Below, one piece after another: positions 1,744-60,475 of a stretch of 64,000 bases of DNA; the first letter of the stretch is position 1; every line of letters begins with the position of its first letter. A model generated the notes under the pieces. It had not been told where the DNA came from. It made no database searches and saw only the letters and a list, made by a program, of their open reading frames with translations. Made by a program: the position numbers and the translations under genes. This stretch comes from an uncultured Verrucomicrobiota bacterium (GTDB taxonomy: Bacteria; Verrucomicrobiota; Verrucomicrobiia; Limisphaerales; JADLHS01), in the NCBI GenBank assembly GCA_937894935.1, contig CALAYC010000215.1:1021-65020 (forward strand), written 5' to 3'.

Positions 1744-3309
1744 TTAATCCTCGTTTGTCGCCTGGCGAAATTCCTCCACTTCCTCCGGCGTGGCTGGCGC
1801 GGGCCAGACGTAGTCGAGTCGCTTCCACAAATCACTCCCGTGATAATCTTCCCGCGGGGCGAAATTTCCGCCGTCATCCAGACCATCTTCTCCAACGGAG
1901 TAAAGCGTGAAGCTGCCGTCGGTGTTGAGTCGGTATTTGAGGGGCTTGCCATCCATGTAATCCACCGGTACTGCAGAGAGAAATTCCGGGACGAGTGCAT
2001 TCAGATTGTCCGGTAACTTTCCGTGTCGAAGCGAATAGCGTTTCAGCGCGATGGCGGTGATACACAGTGCGCGTTCAATTTCGGCCCGCGTCGATTTCTT
2101 AATTGTGTAAGCTAAAGTTATCACGCTATCGGGTGGAGGAAATCGCAATCGATCGTAACCATTTCGCTTGGTTGACTGGACGATCAGCGTGGTTAAATCA
2201 GATTCGATAGCCTGGAACGAGGCGTTAGTTGTAGCCGCACGACTCAGTTCGATGAGTGTTTGCATATTCTTGAGAAGTCTCCGTTCTGCTTGATGCGACC
2301 ACGCGAAACGCCAGGCCCGGCAATAGATATGTCGCCGCAGACCGCTTAACAACTCTTCGCCAAAGGGTAATTGTTTGAACCGTGTCACCCATTCAGATTC
2401 AACCTCATCATCAAAGAAGATCGCGTAATCACCAAACATGAAGTCGTACGTTTTGTCATTGGAATCGCGCAACTGTTGTGCGGTTTGAAGCATATAAATG
2501 CGTTCACCTTCGAGATTGGTGGCCATTGAAGCCATAAAATATTGCGTTTCCCAGACGTGCTGAATAGCAGCCAAATCCGCATCCGCCCAGTCATCGGACT
2601 GTAATGCCTCCCAGGTGTCAGTTCTGGCAATCGCGCCCATGGCAATGCGCACCAGTTCGCTGATGACAACGCCATCTTCTGCCAACAGTCGGAGTGAATT
2701 GAGCTCAGAACTAAGATATTTCGTCGCGTCAGCGGTTCGACCATGGTGCAATGCAAATTGGCACGCACTGCCAAGCCAACGAGTCAAGTTCCTGGCGGAC
2801 AAGAGATGAGAAAATTGCAAATTGGATCCTTCTGCGAGGTCCAAGCGATTGTTCAAGACCGGCTTCGTCAATGCGGTCTGGATTTCGTTCAAGGCGGGCT
2901 TATTTGTCTGCAAATCAGCCGCAAGGTCGCTCCAGTGATTGGTGAAAATTCCGGTTAATGCTTTGCCGTTGCGATAAGGATCTTTTTCTACCCAATAAGG
3001 TTCACGGAATCCGACGATGGCCCGTCCCGACTTCAGCACCTGCATGCGAGGTGGGTAGCTGTCTGGTAGAAGAATGCGATTGGTTAATCTTTCGAGAGCC
3101 GCAAAAATCGTGGGTGCGCCATTGTCTTCTTCATCAAAGACGCGAGCAAAATCCTGCGGGGAAAGTTTCTCGCCTTTGACGCGGAGTTCTTGCTTGAGTC
3201 GAGCCAAAGCAATTTGCCCGCGCCAACGTTCAATCAACAGAAATGCCGCAAGCAACGCGATAAGTCCAAGCAGAATTTTTCCGAGAAGTTTCAGCCGACG
3301 TTTGGACAT
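1744..3309 (-). CDS. Membrane-anchored hypothetical protein, paralogous to the C-terminal module of the 32808-36044 protein
   Basis: 521 aa with a single N-terminal TM (ILLGLIALLAAFLLI). The C-terminus ALKRYSLRHGKLPDNLNALVPEFLSAVPVDYMDGKPLKYRLNTDGSFTLYSVGEDGLDDGG parallels ALERYRLARGSYPEKLSQLVSEYLPEIPPDPVARRPMSYERNPAGRYTLRSFGVDREDD in the other protein. Confidence 0.6.
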   Translation of the reverse strand: MSKRRLKLLGKILLGLIALLAAFLLIERWRGQIALARLKQELRVKGEKLSPQDFARVFDEEDNGAPTIFAALERLTNRILLPDSYPPRMQVLKSGRAIVGFREPYWVEKDPYRNGKALTGIFTNHWSDLAADLQTNKPALNEIQTALTKPVLNNRLDLAEGSNLQFSHLLSARNLTRWLGSACQFALHHGRTADATKYLSSELNSLRLLAEDGVVISELVRIAMGAIARTDTWEALQSDDWADADLAAIQHVWETQYFMASMATNLEGERIYMLQTAQQLRDSNDKTYDFMFGDYAIFFDDEVESEWVTRFKQLPFGEELLSGLRRHIYCRAWRFAWSHQAERRLLKNMQTLIELSRAATTNASFQAIESDLTTLIVQSTKRNGYDRLRFPPPDSVITLAYTIKKSTRAEIERALCITAIALKRYSLRHGKLPDNLNALVPEFLSAVPVDYMDGKPLKYRLNTDGSFTLYSVGEDGLDDGGNFAPREDYHGSDLWKRLDYVWPAPATPEEVEEFRQATNED

Positions 3310-3519
3310 GGCCTGAGGTTAGTTTTCAGCGGTGATGAGACAATTATAATTTCTAAAGGAGATTTTCCTCGGAAAGTTTATGAGAACTTTTCAACTGAAT
3401 GGTTCTTAGTTGCAAACGAGCACGATCAGGAAACGCACGCAACAATTGTCCAATAGAACGGGCTGGCTTCAGTTGCGGCGCTTCGGCATTTTGCCTGCAC
3501 TACACGAACGGTTCGTGGA

Positions 3520-6500
3520 ATGAACATGCGACATTTCAATCTGCTTCTCTCTCTGGTTCTCGGTTGTTCCATGCTGATGCCCGCGCGCGCGGTCGAGAAA
3601 ACTTCGCGCATTGACGCGCGGATGATGCGGCAACCGGATGTATCTGCGACGCACATAGCGTTTGTTTATGCGGGCGACATCTGGGTTGCTCCAAAAACGG
3701 GCGGGGAAGCGGTGCGGTTGAGTTCGCCGCGCGGCGAGGAATCGTTCCCGAAATTTTCGCCGGACGGCACGACTATCGCCTTCAGCGGCAATTATGACGG
3801 CAACGTGGACATTTACACGGTGCCGGTTACGGGTGGCGTGCCGCAACGCATCACGCATCACGGCGCGGCGGATCGGGTGATTGATTGGTATCCCGATGGC
3901 GAGAGCATCCTCTATGCGACGACGATGACGAGCTTCAAAGATCGGTTTAATCAACTCTATAAAGTATCGGCGACGGGCGGGTTGCCGGAAAAATTGCCGA
4001 TGCCGTATGGCGAGTTTGGCGCGATTTCGCCGGATGGAAAATCAATCGTGTTTAACACCATCAGCGTCGATTTCCGCACATGGAAGCGGTATCGCGGCGG
4101 CATGAACCCGGATTTGTGGCTGATGGATCTGACCACGCTCAAGGCGCGCAACATCACCAAGTCGCCTGCGGCGGAATCCATTCCGATGTGGTTCGGAAAC
4201 AAAATTTATTTCCTCTCTGATCGAGATGATTCCAAGCGACTCAACATCTGGTCGCTGGATCTGGCGAATGATCGGTTTAAGCAACTCACGTTTTTCAAAG
4301 AGTTCGACGTGCAATTTCCGAGCGTCGGTGCAGGCGAAATCATTTTCGCCAACGCGGGTCGCTTATATTTGCTCGATTTGAAAACGGAGAAGATGCGTGA
4401 AGTGGAAATTTCCGTGACGACGGATCGCTCCACGTTGAAGCCGCGATTGGAAAATGTGTCGAGTCTGATTCAATGGGCGACGATTTCTCCGACCGGCAAA
4501 CGCGCGTTGTTCTCCGCACGCGGCGAAGTGTTTTCGGTGCCGGCGGAGCATGGCGTGGTGCGCAATCTGACGCGCAGTTCCGGCGTGGCGGAACGTTATC
4601 CTGCGTGGTCGCCGGATGGAAAACTGATTGCGTATTGGAGCGATCGCACGGGTGAATATGAATTGACCGTGCGTGATGCGGAGCGCAATCCCGAAGGGCC
4701 GGGAGAAGAACGCACGCTTACAGCGCTCGGACCGGGTTTCCGTTATTCGCCGCAGTGGTCGCCGGACTCGAAGAAGATCGTGTGGATTGATCAGGCGATG
4801 AAGATCTGGGTTTACGATTTTGAGACGAAGACGAATCGTTTCATTGAGCAACAGAAATGGATGTATCACGGCGCGCTGCAACGTTTCCGCGTGAGTTGGT
4901 CTGCTGACAGTCGCTGGATGGCGTATGCCGGAGAACTGGATACGCGGAACACGGCGATTGTGCTTTATGATTTCGAGAACAATACGCGCCATCAGGTGAC
5001 GAGCGGTTTTTACAATGACGATTTGCCGGTGTTCGATCCGGACGGTAAATATCTCTATTTCCGCACGGGCCGCAGCTTCAGCCCGATTTACAGCGATCTC
5101 GATAACTCCTGGATTTACGCGAACACGATGCGGCTCGCGGCAGTGCCGTTGCGTCGCGATGTGCCGTCGCCGCTCGCGCCGCGAAATGACGACGAACCGG
5201 AGTCCAGGAAAGACAAAGACGCGGAGAAAAAGGATTCCGAGAAAAAAGAAGACGATAAGAAAAACGACGAAAAGAAGTCCGACGAGAAAAAAGACGAGAA
5301 CGGCAACGAAGAAAAGAAAGCCGAGAAAACCAACGGCGAATCCGAATCGAAGAACGACGCCAAGGTCGCCGAGAAGAAAGACGAGAAGAAGAAAGATTCC
5401 AAGACCAAGGCGGTTGAAATTGATCTGGAAGGATTCGAAGAGCGCGCGGTTTTGTTGCCGACGAAGGCCGGTCGTTACGACGACCTCATCGCGGTCTCTG
5501 GCAAATTGCTGTATCGCTGGTTGCCGCGCACCGGAGCGGATGGTGGCAGCAGCCCGGTGGAGTTTTACGATCTGGAAAAGCGCGAGACGAAACGCGTGGT
5601 GGACGACGCGGATGACATCGAGTTGTCTGCCGATCGCAAGAAGTTGCTGGCGCGCAAGGATCGCAGTTACAGCATCATTGAGCCGAAAGAAAATCAGAAG
5701 CTCGACAAGCGGCTCGCGACAACTGGATTTGAAGCGATGATTGATCCGGTTGCTGAGTGGAAACAGATCTTCACTGACGCGTGGCGGTTGGAGCGCGATG
5801 TGTTTTACGATCCGAATCTACACGGCGTGGATTGGAAATTGATGCGCGAGCGTTACGGCAAATTGCTCGAAGAAGCCGTGACGCGTTGGGATGTGAATTT
5901 CGTCATCGGCGAATTGATTGGCGAACTCAATGCCTCGCATACGTATCGCAGCGGCGGCGATGTAGAAAGTGCCACGCATCGCAATGTCGGCTATCTCGGT
6001 TGTGATTTTGTGCTGACGAACGGCGCGTATCGCATTGCGAAAATTATTACCGCTGCGCCGTGGGATACCGAAGTGCGGTCGCCGCTTGCGCAACCGGGCC
6101 TGACGAATATCAGCGAAGGCGATTATCTGCTCGCAGTGAACGGCGAGCCGTTGGATACGAATCTCGATCCGTGGGCCGCATTCCAGGGACTGGCCGATAA
6201 GCCGGTGTTTCTCACCGTGAACAGCGAACCGATATTCCAGGGCGCGCGTGAAGTTCTCGTGCAAACCATCGGCAGCGAAGCGCGCTTGCGAAATCTCGCG
6301 TGGATCAATGAGAACCGGTTGCGCGTGGAAAAAGCGAGCGACGGAAAGATCGGATACATCTACGTGCCGGACACGGGTCAGAATGGACAGAACGAACTCG
6401 TGCGCCAGTTCCGCGGACAATTCACGAAGGCGGGATTGATCATTGATGAACGCTTCAACAGCGGCGGGCAGATTCCGGATCGCTTTGTGGAATTGCTGGA

Positions 6501-6945
6501 TCGTCCGTTGCGGAATTATTGGGGCGTGCGTGATGGCAGCGATTGGCCGTGGCCGGCAGTGGCGCATTTCGGTCCGAAAGCGATGTTGATCAACGGCTGG
6601 AGCGGTTCGGGCGGTGATTGTTTCCCACATTACTTCAAGCAGTCGAAACTCGGTCCGCTGATTGGTCAACGCACTTGGGGCGGTTTGATTGGCATGACCG
6701 GTTCGCCGCCACTCGTGGACGGCGGTAGCGTGACGGTGCCGACGTTTGGCATTTACGATGAGTCCGGCTGGATTATCGAAAGTTACGGAGTGGATCCGGA
6801 CATTGAAGTGGTGGATGACCCCGGCGAAATGGCGCGTGGCGGTGATCCGCAACTGGAGCGAGCCATCTTTGAAGTAATGCGTTCCATCCGGCAGAATCCG
6901 CCTTCGAGCATCAAGAAACCGCAATATCCGAACCGGGCGAATTAA
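3520..6945 (+). CDS. Tricorn-protease-like periplasmic peptidase (TolB/WD40-like beta-propellers, PDZ and S41 peptidase domains)
   Basis: 1141 aa with a signal peptide. It has repeated FSPDG/WSPDG propeller motifs and a C-terminal S41-type region (NGWSGSGGDCF, RTWGGLIG). An internal K/E/D-rich insert lies at 5186-5412. Confidence 0.85.
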   Translation: MNMRHFNLLLSLVLGCSMLMPARAVEKTSRIDARMMRQPDVSATHIAFVYAGDIWVAPKTGGEAVRLSSPRGEESFPKFSPDGTTIAFSGNYDGNVDIYTVPVTGGVPQRITHHGAADRVIDWYPDGESILYATTMTSFKDRFNQLYKVSATGGLPEKLPMPYGEFGAISPDGKSIVFNTISVDFRTWKRYRGGMNPDLWLMDLTTLKARNITKSPAAESIPMWFGNKIYFLSDRDDSKRLNIWSLDLANDRFKQLTFFKEFDVQFPSVGAGEIIFANAGRLYLLDLKTEKMREVEISVTTDRSTLKPRLENVSSLIQWATISPTGKRALFSARGEVFSVPAEHGVVRNLTRSSGVAERYPAWSPDGKLIAYWSDRTGEYELTVRDAERNPEGPGEERTLTALGPGFRYSPQWSPDSKKIVWIDQAMKIWVYDFETKTNRFIEQQKWMYHGALQRFRVSWSADSRWMAYAGELDTRNTAIVLYDFENNTRHQVTSGFYNDDLPVFDPDGKYLYFRTGRSFSPIYSDLDNSWIYANTMRLAAVPLRRDVPSPLAPRNDDEPESRKDKDAEKKDSEKKEDDKKNDEKKSDEKKDENGNEEKKAEKTNGESESKNDAKVAEKKDEKKKDSKTKAVEIDLEGFEERAVLLPTKAGRYDDLIAVSGKLLYRWLPRTGADGGSSPVEFYDLEKRETKRVVDDADDIELSADRKKLLARKDRSYSIIEPKENQKLDKRLATTGFEAMIDPVAEWKQIFTDAWRLERDVFYDPNLHGVDWKLMRERYGKLLEEAVTRWDVNFVIGELIGELNASHTYRSGGDVESATHRNVGYLGCDFVLTNGAYRIAKIITAAPWDTEVRSPLAQPGLTNISEGDYLLAVNGEPLDTNLDPWAAFQGLADKPVFLTVNSEPIFQGAREVLVQTIGSEARLRNLAWINENRLRVEKASDGKIGYIYVPDTGQNGQNELVRQFRGQFTKAGLIIDERFNSGGQIPDRFVELLDRPLRNYWGVRDGSDWPWPAVAHFGPKAMLINGWSGSGGDCFPHYFKQSKLGPLIGQRTWGGLIGMTGSPPLVDGGSVTVPTFGIYDESGWIIESYGVDPDIEVVDDPGEMARGGDPQLERAIFEVMRSIRQNPPSSIKKPQYPNRAN

Positions 6946-6950
6946 AAAAC

Positions 6951-7066
6951 GAGCGCGGCTGTGCAAACGCACCAACCGCAACGGCGTGAATTTTGTCGCG
7001 TTAGAAATCCTTTACAGGTTTCTGCTGAGAGGTACTGCGGCTGGTCTTTCAGACACAGCCGCGCTC
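6951..7066. repeat. Imperfect ~116 bp palindromic intergenic element (family B) between convergent genes
   Basis: The left arm gagcgcggctgtgcaaacgcaccaaccgca (6951-6980) pairs with the right arm tgcggctggtctttcagacacagccgcgctc (7036-7066). The right arm closely resembles 58013-58039 inside nasA. Confidence 0.6.
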
Positions 7067-13939: not shown

Positions 13940-14742
13940 GCGGCAGCAGTGGTAATGGCAAAGGAGCGGCGGTTCGAGTTCGCGTGGAGCGTGGCAAATT
14001 ATTTTTGCCGATTGGAACAATCATTCTGTTTCTACTCGCATGGGATGTTGCGGTGCGGATTTCTGGAAGTGATTTGTTCCCGACGCCAATTCAAGTGGCG
14101 AAAGGTATCAAGGAACTCGCGGAAAAAGGTTTGTTGTTGAAATATATCGTGGCATCGCTGTTTCGTGTCAGTTGGGGTTTCGGTGGTGCGGTGCTGGTGG
14201 GAGTTCCGCTGGGATTGGTGTTGGGCTGGTTTCGACCGGCGTTCTTCGCGATGAATCCATTGATTCAAATCCTTCGCCCGATTTCTCCGATTGCGTGGAT
14301 TCCGGTGGCGATTCTCTGGTTTGGCGTCAAAGATACTGCGCCGATTTTTCTGATTTTTCTCGCGAGCGTTTTTCCCATCACCGTGTCGGCAATGGCCGCG
14401 GTGCAGAACATGCAATCGGTTTACATTCGCGCGGCGCAAAATTTCGGGCTCACCGGTTTTTCATTATTTCGACGCGTGATTTTTCCGGCGGCATTGCCGC
14501 AGATCATCACCGGGATCCGGATTGCGCTCGGCGTTGCGTGGTTGGTGGTGGTGGCGGCGGAGATGATCGCGGTGAACTCCGGACTGGGTTACCTCATCAT
14601 TGATGCGCGCAATGCGGGTAAACGCTACGACCTGGTCGTGGCAGGGATGGCGTTGATTGGTGCGATCGGGTTGGTGCTGGATTTGTTAGTGCGCCGGTTG
14701 GAGAAATTTGACGAAGTTCGCTGGGGTTATGGCCAACGTTGA
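13936..14742 (+). CDS. ABC transporter permease, NitT/TauT family
   Basis: 268 aa with 6 TM helices and an EAA-like loop. It has an ATGA overlap with the SBP gene. Confidence 0.85.
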   Translation: MSGSSGNGKGAAVRVRVERGKLFLPIGTIILFLLAWDVAVRISGSDLFPTPIQVAKGIKELAEKGLLLKYIVASLFRVSWGFGGAVLVGVPLGLVLGWFRPAFFAMNPLIQILRPISPIAWIPVAILWFGVKDTAPIFLIFLASVFPITVSAMAAVQNMQSVYIRAAQNFGLTGFSLFRRVIFPAALPQIITGIRIALGVAWLVVVAAEMIAVNSGLGYLIIDARNAGKRYDLVVAGMALIGAIGLVLDLLVRRLEKFDEVRWGYGQR

Positions 14743-15517
14743 ACCACTCATTCGCGTCCGCGATACCTGGATGTCGTTTCCCGGCAAGAGCAACGGGAAA
14801 TATGTTCACGTGCTTGAAAACGTGAACTTCGATATTCGCGCGGGCGAATTTGTCTGCATCGTCGGGCCATCGGGCTGCGGCAAATCCACGATGCTGAATA
14901 TCCTCGGTGGTTTCCTCAAAGAGACTCGCGGAGAAGTGCGAGTGGAAGGCGCGCCGGTGACCGGGCCGGATCCCGGCCGGATTTTTGTGTTTCAGGAGAA
15001 CGGCGTTTTTCCGTGGCTGACCGTGGAACAGAACGTCGGCTTTGGATTGTTAGCGCGACCGGAGGGGGAACGCGAGCAGCGGGTGAAGCATTACATTCAG
15101 ATGGTCGGCCTGACAGGATTTGAAAAATCGTATCCGCGCGAACTTTCCGGTGGAATGCGACAACGCGTGGAAATCGCTCGGGCACTCGCAGCGGAAGCGC
15201 GTGTGCTTTATATGGACGAACCTTTCGGCGCGCTCGACTTTCTGACGCGATTAAAAATGCGTAACGATCTCATTCGCATCTGGCAGGCGGAACACAAGAC
15301 GGTGATTTTTGTGACGCACGATATCGAAGAGGCCGTGCAGATGGCGGATCGAGTGTTGGTGATGAGTCGTCGTCCCGCGACCGTGCAGGCGGAAGTGGTG
15401 GTGGATTTGCCGCGACCGCGCGATCTCGATGCGCCTGGTTATCTTGAAGCGCGCGACAAAATTTTTTCCATCATGGGCATGGACGCGCACGGCGGTGGAG
15501 CAGGGGAGCCGAAGTAA
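14729..15517 (+). CDS. ABC transporter ATP-binding protein, NitT/TauT family
   Basis: It has Walker A GPSGCGKST, the signature LSGGMRQR and Walker B LYMDEPF. The start may be 14708 or 14729. Confidence 0.9.
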   Translation: MANVEPLIRVRDTWMSFPGKSNGKYVHVLENVNFDIRAGEFVCIVGPSGCGKSTMLNILGGFLKETRGEVRVEGAPVTGPDPGRIFVFQENGVFPWLTVEQNVGFGLLARPEGEREQRVKHYIQMVGLTGFEKSYPRELSGGMRQRVEIARALAAEARVLYMDEPFGALDFLTRLKMRNDLIRIWQAEHKTVIFVTHDIEEAVQMADRVLVMSRRPATVQAEVVVDLPRPRDLDAPGYLEARDKIFSIMGMDAHGGGAGEPK

Positions 15518-54385: not shown

Positions 54386-56044
54386 ATGACATCCGCTCCT
54401 GACAACGCTCCGCGCAACCGGCCTCCCGCCGAATCGGCGCGTACGTTGATTGATGAACTGTTGGCGGAGCAGCAACGGCTCACGGCGGTGGAGCGGTTTT
54501 CCCGTTTGCATGAAACCAACGGGCTTCCGGCGCAGGCGCGTTACTACCGCGATTTAATTCCGCAGACCAAACCGCAGCCCGGGCAGCAATACGCATTCGA
54601 AGTGGATCTCGATCGATGCAGTGGCTGCAAGGCGTGCGTCACGGCGTGTCATTCGCTCAATGGACTCGAAGAAACGGAAACGTGGCGCAACGTGGGATTA
54701 TTGATCAGCGACGATTGGCGCGCGCCGCAACAGCAGACGATTACCACCGCGTGTCATCACTGCGTCGAACCGGGTTGTCTCGAAGGTTGTCCGGTGTTGG
54801 CTTACGACAAAGACCCGGTCACCGGCATCGTGCGGCATCTCGATGATCAATGCATCGGTTGCCAATACTGCGTGATGAAGTGTCCGTACGAAGTGCCGCA
54901 GTATTCGAAACGGCTCGGCATTGTGCGCAAATGCGACATGTGCGCAAATCGCCTCGCGGTCGGTGAAGCACCGGCTTGTGTGCAGGCCTGTCCGCATGAA
55001 GCGATCAAAATTACGTTAGTCGAAACGGCTGCGGTCCGGGAACGCTATCGCGCGACTCAAGATTGCGGAGAAATCAAGGAGAAGGAAAGAGCGCGGAACA
55101 ATCATTCCGCGAATCCGTTTTTGCCCGCGTCGCCGTCACCGCAGATTACGCTGCCGACCACGCGTTACAAATCCACTCGACCGCTGCCATCGACCTTGCT
55201 CGCGGGTGATCACGCGCATGTTGCTCCGGCGACATCGCATTTGCCGTTGGTGTTCATGTTGGTGCTGACGCAATTGGCGGTTGGCGTGAGCCTCGCGACG
55301 TTGTTTGCGTCGCTATCGCAATGGTTGGCCGTTACTGCTGCAATCGTCAGTGCCGTTGCATTGGGCATTGCTTCTTTGCATTTGGGCAAGCCGTTGAAAG
55401 CGTGGCGCGCCTTTCTTGGTTGGCGCACGTCATGGTTCAGTCGCGAAGTTATCGCCTTCGGTGCTTATGTGCCGCTGGCGATGTTGACGGCGGTAACTTT
55501 CTTTGTTGCACCGCTGACTTCGTTGCAAAAGCCACTGATGCTGCTGACCGTCGCAACGGGATTGGTTGGCGTTGCATGTTCGGCGATGATTTATGTGGAT
55601 ACGCGTCGGGAATTCTGGTGCGGATCGCAAAGCTTCGGAAAATTCTTTGGCACGACATTGCTCCTCGGTGCGGCGACAGCGTTGTTAGTCACAGATTCGA
55701 CAAGTTCGATACCGGTTGTGCTGCTGTTTTTTACCACGGCTGCAAAGTTGGGACTGGAACATCGCATTTTCCGGCATCTGGTGGATAAAGACACGTTGAC
55801 GTTGTCGCCATTGAACAAAACCGCACGGCTGCTAACAGATGAACTTGGACTGGCGTCGCGGAGTCGCATCTTCTGCGGAATGCTGGGCGGACTGATTCTG
55901 CCGTTGGGGCTGGTGATGTCGGAGCCGAATCGCGTGTTGGCGATCGTGGTGTTCGGGCTGTGTCTCGTGGGGGAATTGCTGGAGCGCTATCTGTTTTTCA
56001 CGGCAGTTGCGCCCGCCAAAATGCCGGGAGGTTTTGTCGCATGA
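54386..56044 (+). CDS. Fusion of a DmsB/NrfC-type four-cluster FeS protein with a DmsC-like 8-TM membrane anchor; no TAT signal
   Basis: It has four Cys groups ([44 protein letters not shown]...CVQACP). Eight hydrophobic helices follow, with a DmsC-like [14 protein letters not shown]. The start is uncertain (54317 or 54386). Confidence 0.75.
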
Positions 56045-58503
56045 ACGCGGAACAAGAAAATTCTCTGCTGCGGCAATGGAACGGCGCGTTGACGCAAAAA
56101 CTTGGGTTGCGGCCCGGAGATTTTGGCCTCGGTCATGTTCCCGCGCGACTCAAACCGGACAGCACGACGACTTCGGTCTGCGGTTTTTGTTCAACCGGTT
56201 GCGGGTTGAACGTTCATCTCAAAGACGGCCAGGCAGTGAATCTCAGCGCGGCGACGCATTATCCGGTCAATCTCGGTATGGCGTGTCCGAAAGGTTGGGA
56301 AGCGCTGAGTTGTCTTTCCGCGTCTGACCGCGCCACCACGCCGCTCTTGCGCAATCCGAAAACCGGTGAGCTTGAACCGACGGATTGGGATCAAGCGATG
56401 CAGGTGTTCACGCTGAAGTTCAAAGCGATCATGGATAAGCATGGGCCGGAGAGCGTGGCGTTTCTCAGCACCGGCCAGATTTGCACGGAGGAACTCGCGT
56501 TGCTCGGCTGTCTGTGGAAATTCGGCATGGGCGCGTTGCATTGCGATTCCAACACGCGCCAGTGCATGGCCACTGCGCATGTTGCTTACAAACAGAGTTT
56601 CGGTTTCGACGCGCCGCCGTTCACTTATGCGGATTTTGAGTTGAGCGATACGCTGGTGTTCATCGGTGCGAATCCATGCATCGCGCATCCCATCATGTGG
56701 CAGCGCGTGCTGCGAAATAAAAATCAGCCAAACATTATCGTCGTCGATCCGCGTCGCACGGAGACGGCGATGAACGCCACACAACATCTTGCGCTCGCAC
56801 CAAAATCCGATCTTACGTTGCTCTACGGGCTCGCGAATTTACTGGTGCAAAACGGTTGGGTGGATCGCGAGTTCATCGCGCGCAGTACGACGGGATATGC
56901 AGAGTTCGCGGAATTTGTACGGCAGTTCACGCCGGACAAAGTTGCGGCGGAAACGGGTTTGACCGTCGGAGAAATTTATCGTTGTGCGGAAACGATTCAT
57001 CGCGGCAAGGCGGTTTCGTTCTGGTGGACGATGGGCGTGAATCAAGGTCACGAAAGCACACGCACTGCACAGGCGATTATCAATCTCGCGTTGATGACGG
57101 GGAACATCGGCAAACCCGGAACAGGAGCGAACAGTATCACGGGGCAATGCAATGCGATGGGTTCGCGGCTCTACGCAAACGTGACGAGCCTGATTGGCGG
57201 ACGTGACTTTGCGAAGGTGGAACATCGTGAGCAGGTCGCGCGATTGCTGAAGATTCCGGTGGAACGAATCCCGAAAAAATCGTCGTGGGCGTATGATCAG
57301 ATTGTTGAAGGTATTCGCAGCGGAACGATTAAGGGACTGTGGGTGATTGCGACGAATCCAGCGCATTCGTGGGGCGCGCGGCTTGAAAAGAAAAACGGTG
57401 TGACATCCGCCCTCACCCCCGAGGAGAGGGAGAAACGCTCCCCGTCTTACGAGAATGCGAGCGCGGTCAGCGGCTCGCAGGTTAAACGCGAATTCAAGAA
57501 TGCTCAACTGCTATCCCCTCTCCCCGGGGGTGAGGGTGAGCGTGACAATGATTCATTCGACGCCATTCTCGACAAACTGGAATTCCTCGTCGTGCAGGAC
57601 ATGTTCACAACCACGGACACGGCTCAACGCGCGCATCTCATGTTGCCGGCGGCCGGTTGGGGCGAGAAGGAAGGCACGTTCATCAACAGCGAGCGCCGTA
57701 TCGGTTTGACGAAAAAAGTTTCTCGCGCGCCGGGGCAGGCGTTGAGCGATTTCAATATTTTCAAACTCATCGCGCACTATTGGGGCTGTGGCGAATTATT
57801 CCGCGAATGGACTTCGCCCGAAGCAGCGTTTCAGATCATCAAGCGACTCTCAGCCGGACAGCCTTGCGACATCACGGGGATCGTGGATTACAAACATCTC
57901 GATGAGTGCGGCGGAATTCAATGGCCGTTACCGCAATCTGACGGAGTACGGCTGTGGTCGCAGCCTCAGCCGCAGCACGATGAAACGAATAGAAGCGTAC
58001 GAAATAATGAGAGTGCTGCGGCTGGTGCTTCGCACACAGTCGCGTTCGATGAGAGGAGATTGTTCGTCGATGGCAAATTTTATACGCCCGATGGTAAGGC
58101 GAGATTTTTGTTCGATACGCCGCGACCCGTTGCCGAGCCGACGACGGAAGAGTTTCCGTTCGTGATGTTGACGGGGCGCGGCACGAGTGCGCAATGGCAC
58201 ACGAATACGCGCACCGGGAAGTCAGCCGTATTGCGCACACTGTATCCCGCGAATCCGTACGTGGAAATCAATCCTGCCGATCTCGCGCGACTCGGCTTAG
58301 TGGCGAATCGTCCCGTGGCTGTGGTATCGCGTCGCGCGCGAATTGAATGCGCGGCAGTGGCGTCGCCAAGTGTTCAGCCCGGGCACGTGTTTATTCCGAT
58401 GCACTACGACGTGACGAATCAATTGACCCGCGCCGAATACGATCCGCATTCGCGTCAGCCGAGTTACAAATACTGCGCCGTGCGGCTGGAGAAGATTTCA
58501 TGA
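56041..58503 (+). CDS. nasA: Molybdopterin (bis-MGD) oxidoreductase of the assimilatory nitrate reductase NasA/NarB type, with two in-frame repeat insertions
   Basis: It has an ATGA overlap with the FeS/anchor gene. It has an N-terminal [4Fe-4S] motif CGFCSTGCG...ACPKG and no twin-arginine leader. The C-terminus [20 protein letters not shown] is typical of Nas/NarB. Confidence 0.8.
57409..57545. repeat. Family A palindromic element inserted in frame in nasA
   Basis: The arm ccctcacccccgaggagaggg (57410-57430) is the reverse complement (20/21) of ccctctccccgggggtgaggg (about 57515-57535). It encodes [12 protein letters not shown]...[12 protein letters not shown], and SPL..GGEG is shared with the miaA copy. 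Confidence 0.6.
57952..58039. repeat. Family B palindromic element inserted in frame in nasA
   Basis: ctgtggtcgcagcctcagccgcagcac (57952-57978) pairs with gtgctgcggctggtgcttcgcacacag (58013-58039) at 22/27 positions. The right arm is near-identical to intergenic 7033-7059. Confidence 0.55.
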
Positions 58504-58669
58504 AAACCCATCGAGTACCAACAGCCAGGCTACAGAGAAGTACCAGGTTTCAAGCTCCAACGCGTGTCAGCGCAGGAGGAATTATTTTGAAGTTTGGTGC
58601 TTGGAATTTCTTTGGATGTTGGAGCTTGGGGCTTGGTTATTTTCCTCGTCCGCTTCTTTTCAATTTTCA

Positions 58670-60475
58670 ATGACGAACATTCCTTTCATTCCTGAATCCG
58701 CTCCGTTCACCGTGGAACAACGCGCGTGGCTCAACGGTTTTCTCGCCGGTCTGTTCTCGCAAGTGCCCGCCGGTGCGCCGACGCCGCAACTGAACATTGC
58801 TCCGCTCAAGCCGCCGGGTGAACCGTTGCTCGTGCTATACGGATCGCAGACGGGCAGCGCGGAAGGACTCGCGAAAAAGGTAGCGAAGGAAGCGGAAGTG
58901 CGCGGATTTGCGCCGAAGCTCGCGGCGTTGAACGATTTTGAATCAGCAGGATTCGTTACGGCGAAAAAGGCGGTCATCATTTCGAGCACGTGGGGCGATG
59001 GCGAACCGCCGGATAATGCAGTGAATTTCTGGAGTTGGCTCAATGGCGATGCCGCGCCGCGGCTGGAGAATTTGAATTTTGCGGTGCTCGGGTTGGGCGA
59101 CCGGAACTATTCCGATTTCTGCGGTGCATCGAAGAAGTTTGATGTGCGATTGGAAGCGCTCGGGGCGAAACGCGTTGTGCCGCGCGGCGAGTGCGATGTG
59201 GATTACGAAGGTCCGGCGAAGGCGTGGATTGATGGACTGTGGGAAAAGCTGAGTGAAGGGAGGGCGGGCAGTCCCCTGTCTGCCGCCGTTGGCAATGGCG
59301 CGAACGGCGCGCATGGAGTGACGCGTCCTACCAGCGAAGCCAACGGCGCTCCGAAAGTTTACGGCAAATCCAATCCTTTCCCCGCAAAGCTGCTCAAGAA
59401 CGTGCTGTTGAACAAGCCCGGCTCGGGCAAGGAAGTGCGCCACTACGAAATTTCACTGACCGGAAGTGGCTTGACGTACGAAGCAGGCGACGCGCTCGGG
59501 GTTGTGCCGGTGAATTGTCCCGAACTGGTGGACGACATCATCACCGCGCTCAAAGCAAATCCCGATGAGAACGTGAAGTTCGGCGACAAGATTGTGTCGT
59601 TGCGCGAGGCGTTGACGCATCACCTGGACGTAACGAAGCCGTCGCAGGAATTGTTGGCGGTCGTGGCGAAAGCGGCGCCGCAAAGTGAGCTTGCGGCGTT
59701 GCTCGGGCCGGAGAAACGTGACGGGTTGAAAAAGTGGTTATGGGGGCGGCACGTGATTGATTTGCTCGAACTGCTGCCGGCGCCGATGCCGGTGACAGAA
59801 TTTATTCCGCTGCTCAAAAAACTGGTACCGCGGCTCTACTCGATTTCCTCGTCGCCCAGAATGCATCCGGGTGAAGTGCATTTGACGGTTGGCGCGGTGC
59901 GTTACGAGAGTCACGGACGTAAACGCAAAGGTGTGGCTTCGACGTTTCTGGCGGATCGCGTCGGTGAGATGGAATTCGTGAAAGTGTTCGTGCAGCCGTC
60001 GCATGGATTCAAACCGCCGGCCAACGGAGATACGCCGATGATTATGGTCGGGCCGGGCACGGGCATCGCGCCGTTTCGCGCGTTTCTGGAAGAACGTCAG
60101 GCGACCGGTGCGAAGGGTAAAAACTGGTTGTTCTTTGGCGATCAGAAGCGCGACACGGATTTTCTTTACGGGGAATTACTCACTGGCTGGCACAAATCGG
60201 GTTTTCTTACGCGGCTGGATTTGGCGTTTTCGCGGGATCAGGAGCAGAAGATTTATGTGCAGGATCGCATGCGGGAAAACGCAACAGAACTGTGGTCGTG
60301 GCTCGAAGCTGGCGCGCACTTTTATGTCTGCGGCGATGCGAGTCGCATGGCGAAGGACGTGGACGCGGCATTACACGCGATTGTGGAAACTGCCGGTGGC
60401 AAGAGTGCCGAAGAGGCGAAAGCATACGTGGCGAAATTGAAAACGGAGAAACGATATCAACGAGATGTGTATTGA
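58670..60475 (+). CDS. CysJ-like diflavin (flavodoxin-FAD-NADPH) reductase
   Basis: 601 aa. It has an FMN domain (LVLYGSQTGSAEG...SSTWGDGEPP), an FNR-like domain (RLYSISSSP, GPGTGIAPFRAF) and the terminal YQRDVY. Confidence 0.85.
   Translation: MTNIPFIPESAPFTVEQRAWLNGFLAGLFSQVPAGAPTPQLNIAPLKPPGEPLLVLYGSQTGSAEGLAKKVAKEAEVRGFAPKLAALNDFESAGFVTAKKAVIISSTWGDGEPPDNAVNFWSWLNGDAAPRLENLNFAVLGLGDRNYSDFCGASKKFDVRLEALGAKRVVPRGECDVDYEGPAKAWIDGLWEKLSEGRAGSPLSAAVGNGANGAHGVTRPTSEANGAPKVYGKSNPFPAKLLKNVLLNKPGSGKEVRHYEISLTGSGLTYEAGDALGVVPVNCPELVDDIITALKANPDENVKFGDKIVSLREALTHHLDVTKPSQELLAVVAKAAPQSELAALLGPEKRDGLKKWLWGRHVIDLLELLPAPMPVTEFIPLLKKLVPRLYSISSSPRMHPGEVHLTVGAVRYESHGRKRKGVASTFLADRVGEMEFVKVFVQPSHGFKPPANGDTPMIMVGPGTGIAPFRAFLEERQATGAKGKNWLFFGDQKRDTDFLYGELLTGWHKSGFLTRLDLAFSRDQEQKIYVQDRMRENATELWSWLEAGAHFYVCGDASRMAKDVDAALHAIVETAGGKSAEEAKAYVAKLKTEKRYQRDVY
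59256..59335. repeat. GC-rich palindrome-containing insert in the FMN-FAD linker of the cysJ-like gene
   Basis: It encodes EGRAGSPLSAAVGNGANGAHGVTRPTSE. It contains the hairpin gcgggcag/ctgccgc and the perfect palindrome gacgcgtc. There is only one copy in this window, so repeat status rests on my memory of similar peptides in related genomes. Confidence 0.35.

Follow-up and report, generated by a model that had tools for sequence, protein, structure and literature searches.

Rickettsia palindromic elements are palindromes inserted in frame in genes and translated as extra peptide segments, and they are found between genes as well. They carry a CGTC tag (PMC3733652). Repetitive extragenic palindromes (REPs) have been described as REP doublets in Pseudomonas fluorescens SBW25 and, in E. 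coli, as REPs and bacterial interspersed mosaic elements (BIMEs) together with the transposase TnpA-REP; in these REPIN-RAYT systems, hairpin units of about 30 nt stand as inverted pairs around a spacer in many dispersed, mostly extragenic copies, and a Y1/HUH transposase gene is flanked by the same units (PMC3116915, PMC3337134). Intragenic REPs have been reported in several species, chiefly the verrucomicrobium Opitutus terrae and Rickettsia conorii, often in replication or repair genes and sometimes twice per gene, where they encode 20-30 residues (Di Nocera et al. 2013, PMC3733652). Here we describe a further family, family B, from a copy that lies in frame in nasA, the gene for the catalytic subunit of assimilatory nitrate reductase, in a 64,000-nt stretch of DNA from an uncultured Verrucomicrobiota bacterium (contig CALAYC010000215.1; hereafter the window). 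We are confident that this segment of nasA is a non-autonomous mobile element of the REP/REPIN type, likely moved by a REP-associated tyrosine transposase (RAYT); the element sits in frame in an insertion-tolerant loop and is most likely a passenger there.

Family B resembles the REPIN-RAYT systems in its hairpin units of about 30 nt, set in inverted pairs around a spacer, in what appear to be many dispersed and mostly extragenic copies, and in a Y1/HUH transposase gene flanked by the same units, with no target-site duplication (PMC3116915, PMC3337134). It departs from them in having GGAG rather than GTAG, a Verrucomicrobiota host, long spacers (about 40 or 58 nt), and many variants of the apical stem, two of which are often mixed in one dimer; a few per cent of its copies stand in frame in genes. 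Like the GTAG REPs of Opitutus terrae, which occur as singles or dimers in frame in known proteins of that verrucomicrobium, many of them in genes for DNA repair or helicases (PMC3733652), family B is hosted by protein-coding genes, namely nasA, mfd, a helicase gene and a kinase gene. Unlike them, it belongs to another sequence family, lacks the GTAG tag and makes inserts of about 35 residues against the usual 20-30, and neither of the family-B peptides TAALR and ARLW is present in the supplementary files of PMC3733652. With the Rickettsia palindromic elements it shares the in-frame position in coding genes, the frames of nasA, Mfd, the helicase and the kinase being open and presumably translated through the insert; its GGAG/CTCC ends, its Verrucomicrobiota hosts and its flanked RAYT set it apart, and no sequence relation was seen. 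Family B is a new family, while intragenic REPs as a phenomenon have already been described in Opitutus terrae and Rickettsia.

The nasA gene of the window (56041-58503, plus strand) encodes 820 residues with the Pfam domains Fe4S4 (residues 42-87), Molybdopterin (97-578) and Molydop_binding (707-813), and is closely related to assimilatory nitrate reductases of Verrucomicrobiota. The family-B insert is positioned between the Molybdopterin and Molydop_binding domains, where a repeat finder reports an inverted repeat with 30-nt arms at 57949-57978 and 58013-58042, 80% complementary and 34 nt apart. A preliminary description of the window had placed the arms at 57952-57978 and 58013-58039 with 22 of 27 positions paired, a count that direct reading reproduces. 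The full element is larger than first described, extending from 57943 to 58048 (GGAG...CTCg) and encoding residues 635-669 of NasA; both the encoded peptide and its placement right before a conserved NasA block are as originally given.

Within these limits the element is a REPIN-like dimer of two REP units. The left unit (57944-57975, plus strand) reads GAGTACGGCTG-TGGTCGCAGCCT-CAGCCGCAG, a GGTC-gca-GACC variant that is partly decayed in this copy, and the right unit (58016-58047, minus strand) reads, on its own strand, GAACGCGACTG-TGTGCGAAGCAC-CAGCCGCAG, a GTGC-gaa-GCAC variant. Between them lies a spacer of 40 nt (57976-58015), which places the dimer in the 104-nt length class and is homologous to the spacers of the nasA copies at three loci of other genomes (L002, L003 and L124; 68-72% identity). 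Many of the mismatches between the arms stem from their being two different REP variants, to which decay is added: several stem pairs have been lost in both units relative to the L002 and L003 copies. The same pairing of GGTC-gca-GACC with GTGC-gaa-GCAC at a length of 104 nt is also present in copies outside nasA (L079, L104, L110). The element has a predicted folding energy of -48.8 kcal/mol (z -4.2 against dinucleotide shuffles), and the nasA frame stays open across it, with no stop codon and the frame kept through 820 codons. No T-run lies 3' of the hairpin, and a promoter/terminator scanner that considers only loops of 3-8 nt called no terminator there. Rfam at gathering thresholds gave no match anywhere in the window, and a HMMER search with the 37-residue window peptide, a short and decayed query, against 1.84 billion representatives returned two unrelated repeat proteins only.

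The window holds 2 family-B dimers in its 64 kb. The other, of 116 nt, occupies 6951-7066 between the convergent genes for a tricorn-type protease and MiaA, and a convergent intergenic spot is the usual location of a REP. Its left unit (about 6951-6981) is degenerate, and its right one (7035-7066) agrees perfectly with the consensus for the GTC-tgaaa-GAC variant. The likeness that had been noted between the right arm in nasA and 7033-7059 is real and longer than reported, with 28 of 35 positions identical between 58013-58047 and 7032-7066, though the coordinates had been off by one base. The preliminary description had named a lack of support from formal alignment statistics as grounds for abandoning this likeness. 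The 35-mer attains a local alignment score of 21, a value reached by none of 300 random 35-mers from the window aligned with the rest of it (mean 13.5, s.d. 1.4, maximum 19). The outer left ends are also alike (GAGCGCGGCTGTG at 6951-6963, GAGTACGGCTGTG at 57944-57956), and when both copies are aligned in both orientations they yield a consensus of GGAGCGCGGCTGTG...CCAGCCGCAGC, a spacer and the reverse complement.

The intergenic element has a folding energy of -54.2 kcal/mol (z -3.7 against dinucleotide shuffles). An A-run on the plus strand at 6944-6949, read directly and overlapping the tricorn stop codon (6943-6945), is TTTTTT on the minus strand, one base past the hairpin, and the dimer and this run together have the shape of an intrinsic terminator for miaA. 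The scanner did not report it, being limited to loops of 3-8 nt; blind to long-loop hairpins, it gave background-level matches only at both sites. On the plus strand no T-run follows the dimer. The terminator-like character first attributed to this copy is accordingly plausible on the minus (miaA) strand, and not on the plus strand. The intergenic copy would probably terminate the miaA transcript or stabilise it.

When one genome per species was scanned for the exact pattern, at least 120 loci matched. Verrucomicrobiota lineage names stand on 103 of the 120 listed, and one metagenome-assembled genome (MAG) alone gives at least 14; the remaining listed loci, recorded as Bifidobacterium, Klebsiella, Proteobacteria and a few more, are all from MAGs, and the names are taken as recorded. 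Among the listed loci, 256 units resolve into 99 inverted dimers and 58 unpaired units, the dimers clustering in length near 86, 104 and 120-131 nt and the spacers near about 40 and 58 nt. The two boxes of each unit, GGAGCGCGGCTG on the outer side and CAGCCGCAG on the inner, enclose a short apical stem-loop that varies between copies, and the variable part is itself palindromic (GTGC-gaa-GCAC, GTC-tgaaa-GAC, GGTC-gca-GACC and many more). The 32-nt unit forms a hairpin of 11 pairs with one bulged base and a 3-nt loop: across 69 distinct units, 96.4% of cells are paired against 86.0% in shuffles, and changes on both sides of a pair are found in 64 cells where 16.9 are expected. None of 500 shuffles reaches the observed values, and three apical pairs covary. 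Because the variable part of the unit forms a hairpin with covariation, each arm is a REP-like stem-loop and the element as a whole an inverted REP dimer.

The ends of the dimers are conserved as C-G-GAGCGCGG...CCGCGCTC-C-G, with G at position -1 in 97% and C at position -2 in 78%. No target-site duplication was seen at the 99 dimers, direct repeats of 2-5 nt at offsets 0-3 being no commoner than when the pairing of flanks was shuffled. The proposal that one family occurs both between genes and as coding sequence holds for what is now a dispersed REP dimer present in at least 120 loci and in frame in at least three other genes; that the arms are separate hairpins, that they belong to two REP variants and that the family has a cognate RAYT go beyond it. 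Family-B dimers or units also follow one another in tandem, with three to five or more copies spaced about 95-146 nt apart (L023 926-5329, L095 1-230). At six loci (L017, L042, L076, L099, L111, L116), short family-B dimers are nested in an outer inverted repeat, TTCTCATTTTG ... CAAAATGAGAA, which suggests either that the element is composite or that family B inserted into a palindrome already there.

A panel of published RAYT sequences from the supplement of PMC3733652 detected three Y1 transposase genes among the loci (L022, L068 and L114). The gene at L022 (5111-5905, minus strand) has a complete family-B dimer directly on either side, at about 4988-5110 and 5859-5988, and the unit variant that faces the gene is the same in both. 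Its product passes the Pfam Y1_Tnp model and has E. coli TnpA-REP (4er8) as its sole match of solved structure in the PDB, with the HUH motif aligned. It has 1903 homologues at E <= 1e-10, several of them named 'REP element-mobilizing transposase RayT' by JGI, and the homologues retain MPNHVH (the HUH motif) and the catalytic tyrosine in RNYIENNP. In three more contexts (L129, L130 and L131-133; one of them on a 1.7-Mb contig), such homologues again have family-B dimers or units beside them, no more than about 50 nt from the ends of the gene. A RAYT gene directly flanked by family-B dimers, the architecture of a REPtron, is thus observed in four independent genomic contexts.

Other transposases were considered as the family-B enzyme and rejected. 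Those of L068 and L114 are linked to other repeat families or to elements with terminal inverted repeats (TIRs), and the one beside nasA at L003 has units of another REP family on its flanks; when the L003 transposase was the sole tblastn query, no further Y1 gene came up among the loci. This L003 region (14486-15125) is a second REPtron, 2 kb downstream of nasA, in which a Y1 transposase gene is accompanied by GTAGCCACGGGTGGAGCGCAGCGGAACCCGTGG hairpins of a different, GTAG-tagged family, and next to it the final ~40 nt of the nitrite reductase gene are present a second time.

The placement in nasA is not the only one of its kind. At least three of 96 sampled dimers occupy long frames in which Pfam domains stand on either side of the dimer or surround it: one in Mfd between the Helicase_C and TRCF domains (L078, gene 2697-6566), one in a UvrD/AddA-like helicase-nuclease between UvrD_C and PDDEXK_1 (L083), and one inside the kinase domain of a Ser/Thr kinase (L104). 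All three have a left unit of the GGTC...GACC type or a close variant and share the reading frame of the nasA copy (GARLW.(Q/E/K)TQPQ ... AAAGA.HTAAL). A bias of coding copies towards one frame, which the preliminary description had raised as a point to check, therefore appears in all four genes, though with n = 4 it is suggestive at best. Stop codons were rejected as the cause, all three frames being open about equally often. More likely, the peptides themselves are what matters, as the shared frame is predicted to give a hydrophilic product and the others cysteine-rich or hydrophobic ones.

In Mfd the loop that follows LDFL varies in length between 16 and 71 residues among 115 Verrucomicrobiota orthologues and is filled, in different lineages, with many different repeat-derived peptides, family B among them; it is thus a second hotspot at which many families have inserted. 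Downstream of nasA in the window, a flavodoxin/FAD-binding reductase gene (58601-60475, plus strand) contains an in-frame repeat-like insert with a strong DNA fold at 59258-59330, GRAGSPLSAAVGNGANGAHGVTRPT, and this insert family (GRAGSPL...GAHGVTRPT) also fills the Mfd loop in many Verrucomicrobiota orthologues. Since a multi-family loop exists in Mfd too, repeated colonisation is not special to nasA, and this counts against a function specific to nasA. The pattern argues for a high flux of elements filtered by protein tolerance, possibly aided by a preference for existing hairpins.

The comparison of NasA orthologues, which had been proposed as a check, shows that the loop segment is not ancestral. 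When 37 close orthologues are aligned, no part of NasA varies more than the stretch following GGIQWP. Of 120 close orthologues, 15 have a loop of at most 17 residues (P0016 and P0032 are examples) and the remainder show at least 15 recognisably different loop peptides, most of them mirror-like, as translated palindromes are; these palindrome families are scattered over a neighbour-joining tree of conserved NasA columns. In a wider metagenome set (53-79% identity) the modal loop is 9-12 residues, with DNA that folds no better than mononucleotide shuffles; among loops of at least 28 residues, nearly all reach fold z-scores of -4.8 to -10.3 against such shuffles.

Family B itself is present in the nasA genes of P0001, P0006, P0036, P0040, P0044 and P0046. 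The copies of the window, L002, L003 and L124 are identical in position and length, with spacers 68-72% alike, while those of L125 and L126 are shifted by one codon and have spacers resembling the non-nasA copies L104 and L110; from these sequences it is likely, if not proven, that family B arrived at the NasA loop more than once. At L128, the nasA of P0109, only the right family-B unit is found and the left half is (AGTCCAA)4, so that elements in the NasA loop have been partly overwritten by others. L001, the closest relative over the loop part of nasA, has at the site a different, GTAG-tagged repeat, 9 copies of which occur in the listed loci. Spacer divergence among the window, L002, L003 and L124 is 0.31 per site and falls on the three codon positions as 16/34/23; with no third-position bias, there is no sign of selection on the encoded peptide. 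The window and L001 (863-3151) are 100% identical in DNA over 56041-57090, the first kb of nasA, and 83-93% identical after it. This step indicates recombination between lineages or a chimeric metagenome contig and cautions against over-reading the tree.

A different palindromic insert, family A, lies upstream in the same gene at 57399-57547 (arms 57399-57430 and 57516-57547). It is a separate inverted repeat, in agreement with the preliminary description, which had nasA hosting two unrelated repeat families, and both inserts are missing from many orthologues. A further inverted repeat (58535-58644), whose arms of 27 nt are 74% complementary, is found between the stop codon of nasA and the gene that follows.

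Several other explanations of the nasA segment can be envisaged. If it were an ancestral NasA loop, its likeness to the intergenic site would be a G+C-rich coincidence. NapA of D. desulfuricans does have a native stretch of about 30 residues where it aligns with this segment, but the match beats all 300 controls, the same 104-nt element exists outside nasA, in-frame copies elsewhere included, the wider NasA family has 9-12 residues in the loop, and in L001, the closest relative here, another repeat occupies the site. We give this explanation almost no weight. MITEs (miniature transposable elements bounded by inverted repeats), such as the Correia elements of Neisseria, are small, non-coding, multi-copy elements with inverted ends, which may terminate transcripts or be co-transcribed; they derive from DDE insertion sequences and make target-site duplications. 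Family B is likewise small and multi-copy with inverted ends, about 100 nt in length and with no coding capacity of its own, as would be expected if it had arisen by deletion from an insertion sequence that has terminal inverted repeats and a DDE transposase. Yet neither a duplication, at any offset, nor a DDE parent was seen, each supposed terminal repeat is a covarying hairpin, units exist singly (the 58 unpaired ones), and the only transposase found beside units is the Y1/HUH RAYT, all of which makes a classical MITE very improbable.

It could also be that the hairpin is kept in nasA for a function, as an RNA or DNA signal for pausing, processing, stability or attenuation between the domains, or as a useful protein loop. 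The strong predicted RNA fold of the element would suit such a role, as would the palindromes that most close orthologues carry in the same loop and the arms of L002, L003 and L124, which have stayed near the consensus while the spacer and the surrounding gene diverged. Against this stand the variety of the loop, with at least 15 unrelated families of varied length in it and a short version (17 residues or fewer) in 15 of 120 orthologues, and the same multi-family pattern in one loop of the unrelated Mfd. In the window copy, moreover, several stem pairs are gone from both units; the hairpin has no T-run after it, the short-loop scanner reported no terminator there, and the spacer is free of codon-position bias. 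We consider a retained function unlikely.

Our preferred reading, a REP-type mobile element resident in nasA as a passenger, has to accommodate observations that weigh against it. The units begin with GGAG, and not with the GTAG or CGTC tag of most described REP families (PMC3733652), and the degenerate tag forms given in that work omit GGAG. No RAYT gene lies within the 64-kb window, the flanked RAYTs being known from related genomes. The L022 transposase has cysteine in place of the catalytic tyrosine (RNCIENNP against RNYIENNP), and this copy may be inactive or may contain a sequencing error. The arms of the L002, L003 and L124 nasA copies differ by 0.08-0.13 per site, far below the spacer and the surrounding gene, which may reflect either recent separate insertions or a constraint on the hairpin at the nucleotide level. 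Finally, an AlphaFold2 model built on the 37-sequence NasA alignment has a mean pLDDT (predicted local distance difference test score) of 55.7, with most of the protein, beyond the inserts as well, below 50, and its quality is too low for a structural conclusion on the loop.

In the model that we propose, a single-copy RAYT, an IS200-like Y1/HUH transposase, most likely copies family B in trans; we infer it to be the mover from the flanked genes of related genomes. The enzyme would act on hairpins in single-stranded DNA and would leave no target-site duplication. One copy would have landed in nasA between the regions for the molybdopterin and dinucleotide-binding domains, where the ancestral loop may have measured some 10-12 residues. 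As this copy was free of stop codons and kept the frame, nasA would have remained intact, with about 35 extra hydrophilic residues encoded. Most likely NasA merely tolerates the insert as a passenger that has no functional part in the protein, and the copy in the window is already decaying.

Of the by-products of this analysis, the most interesting is that many families have repeatedly colonised a single loop, as is also seen in Mfd. From lineage to lineage the same few codons are taken up by at least 15 unrelated families of REP-like palindromes, and cases of half-replacement are seen. It is tempting to speculate that single permissive loops, after GGIQWP in NasA and after LDFL in Mfd, are repeated landing pads in which a resident hairpin attracts the next element, so that survivorship alone would not account for the pattern; we put this forward tentatively, as an idea we doubt more than we believe. 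Hairpin-targeted insertion or replacement by RAYT-type enzymes could then give rise to self-perpetuating loops in which a piece of a protein is continually rewritten.

Beyond the single gene, these results bear on how verrucomicrobial genomes are read. The inserts lengthen conserved proteins by 30-90 residues and seed spurious open reading frames, and a known family with its transposase permits them to be masked or interpreted. They also break metagenome assemblies, as many of the RAYT and Mfd relatives lie on contigs of 1-3 kb and the nasA comparison is mosaic or chimeric. A GGAG-tagged REP-RAYT pair is added to a phylum in which such systems have been little studied. One short loop that has received many independent palindromic insertions is, in effect, a natural experiment on the tolerance of proteins for random peptides and on the targeting of hairpins by REP-type elements.

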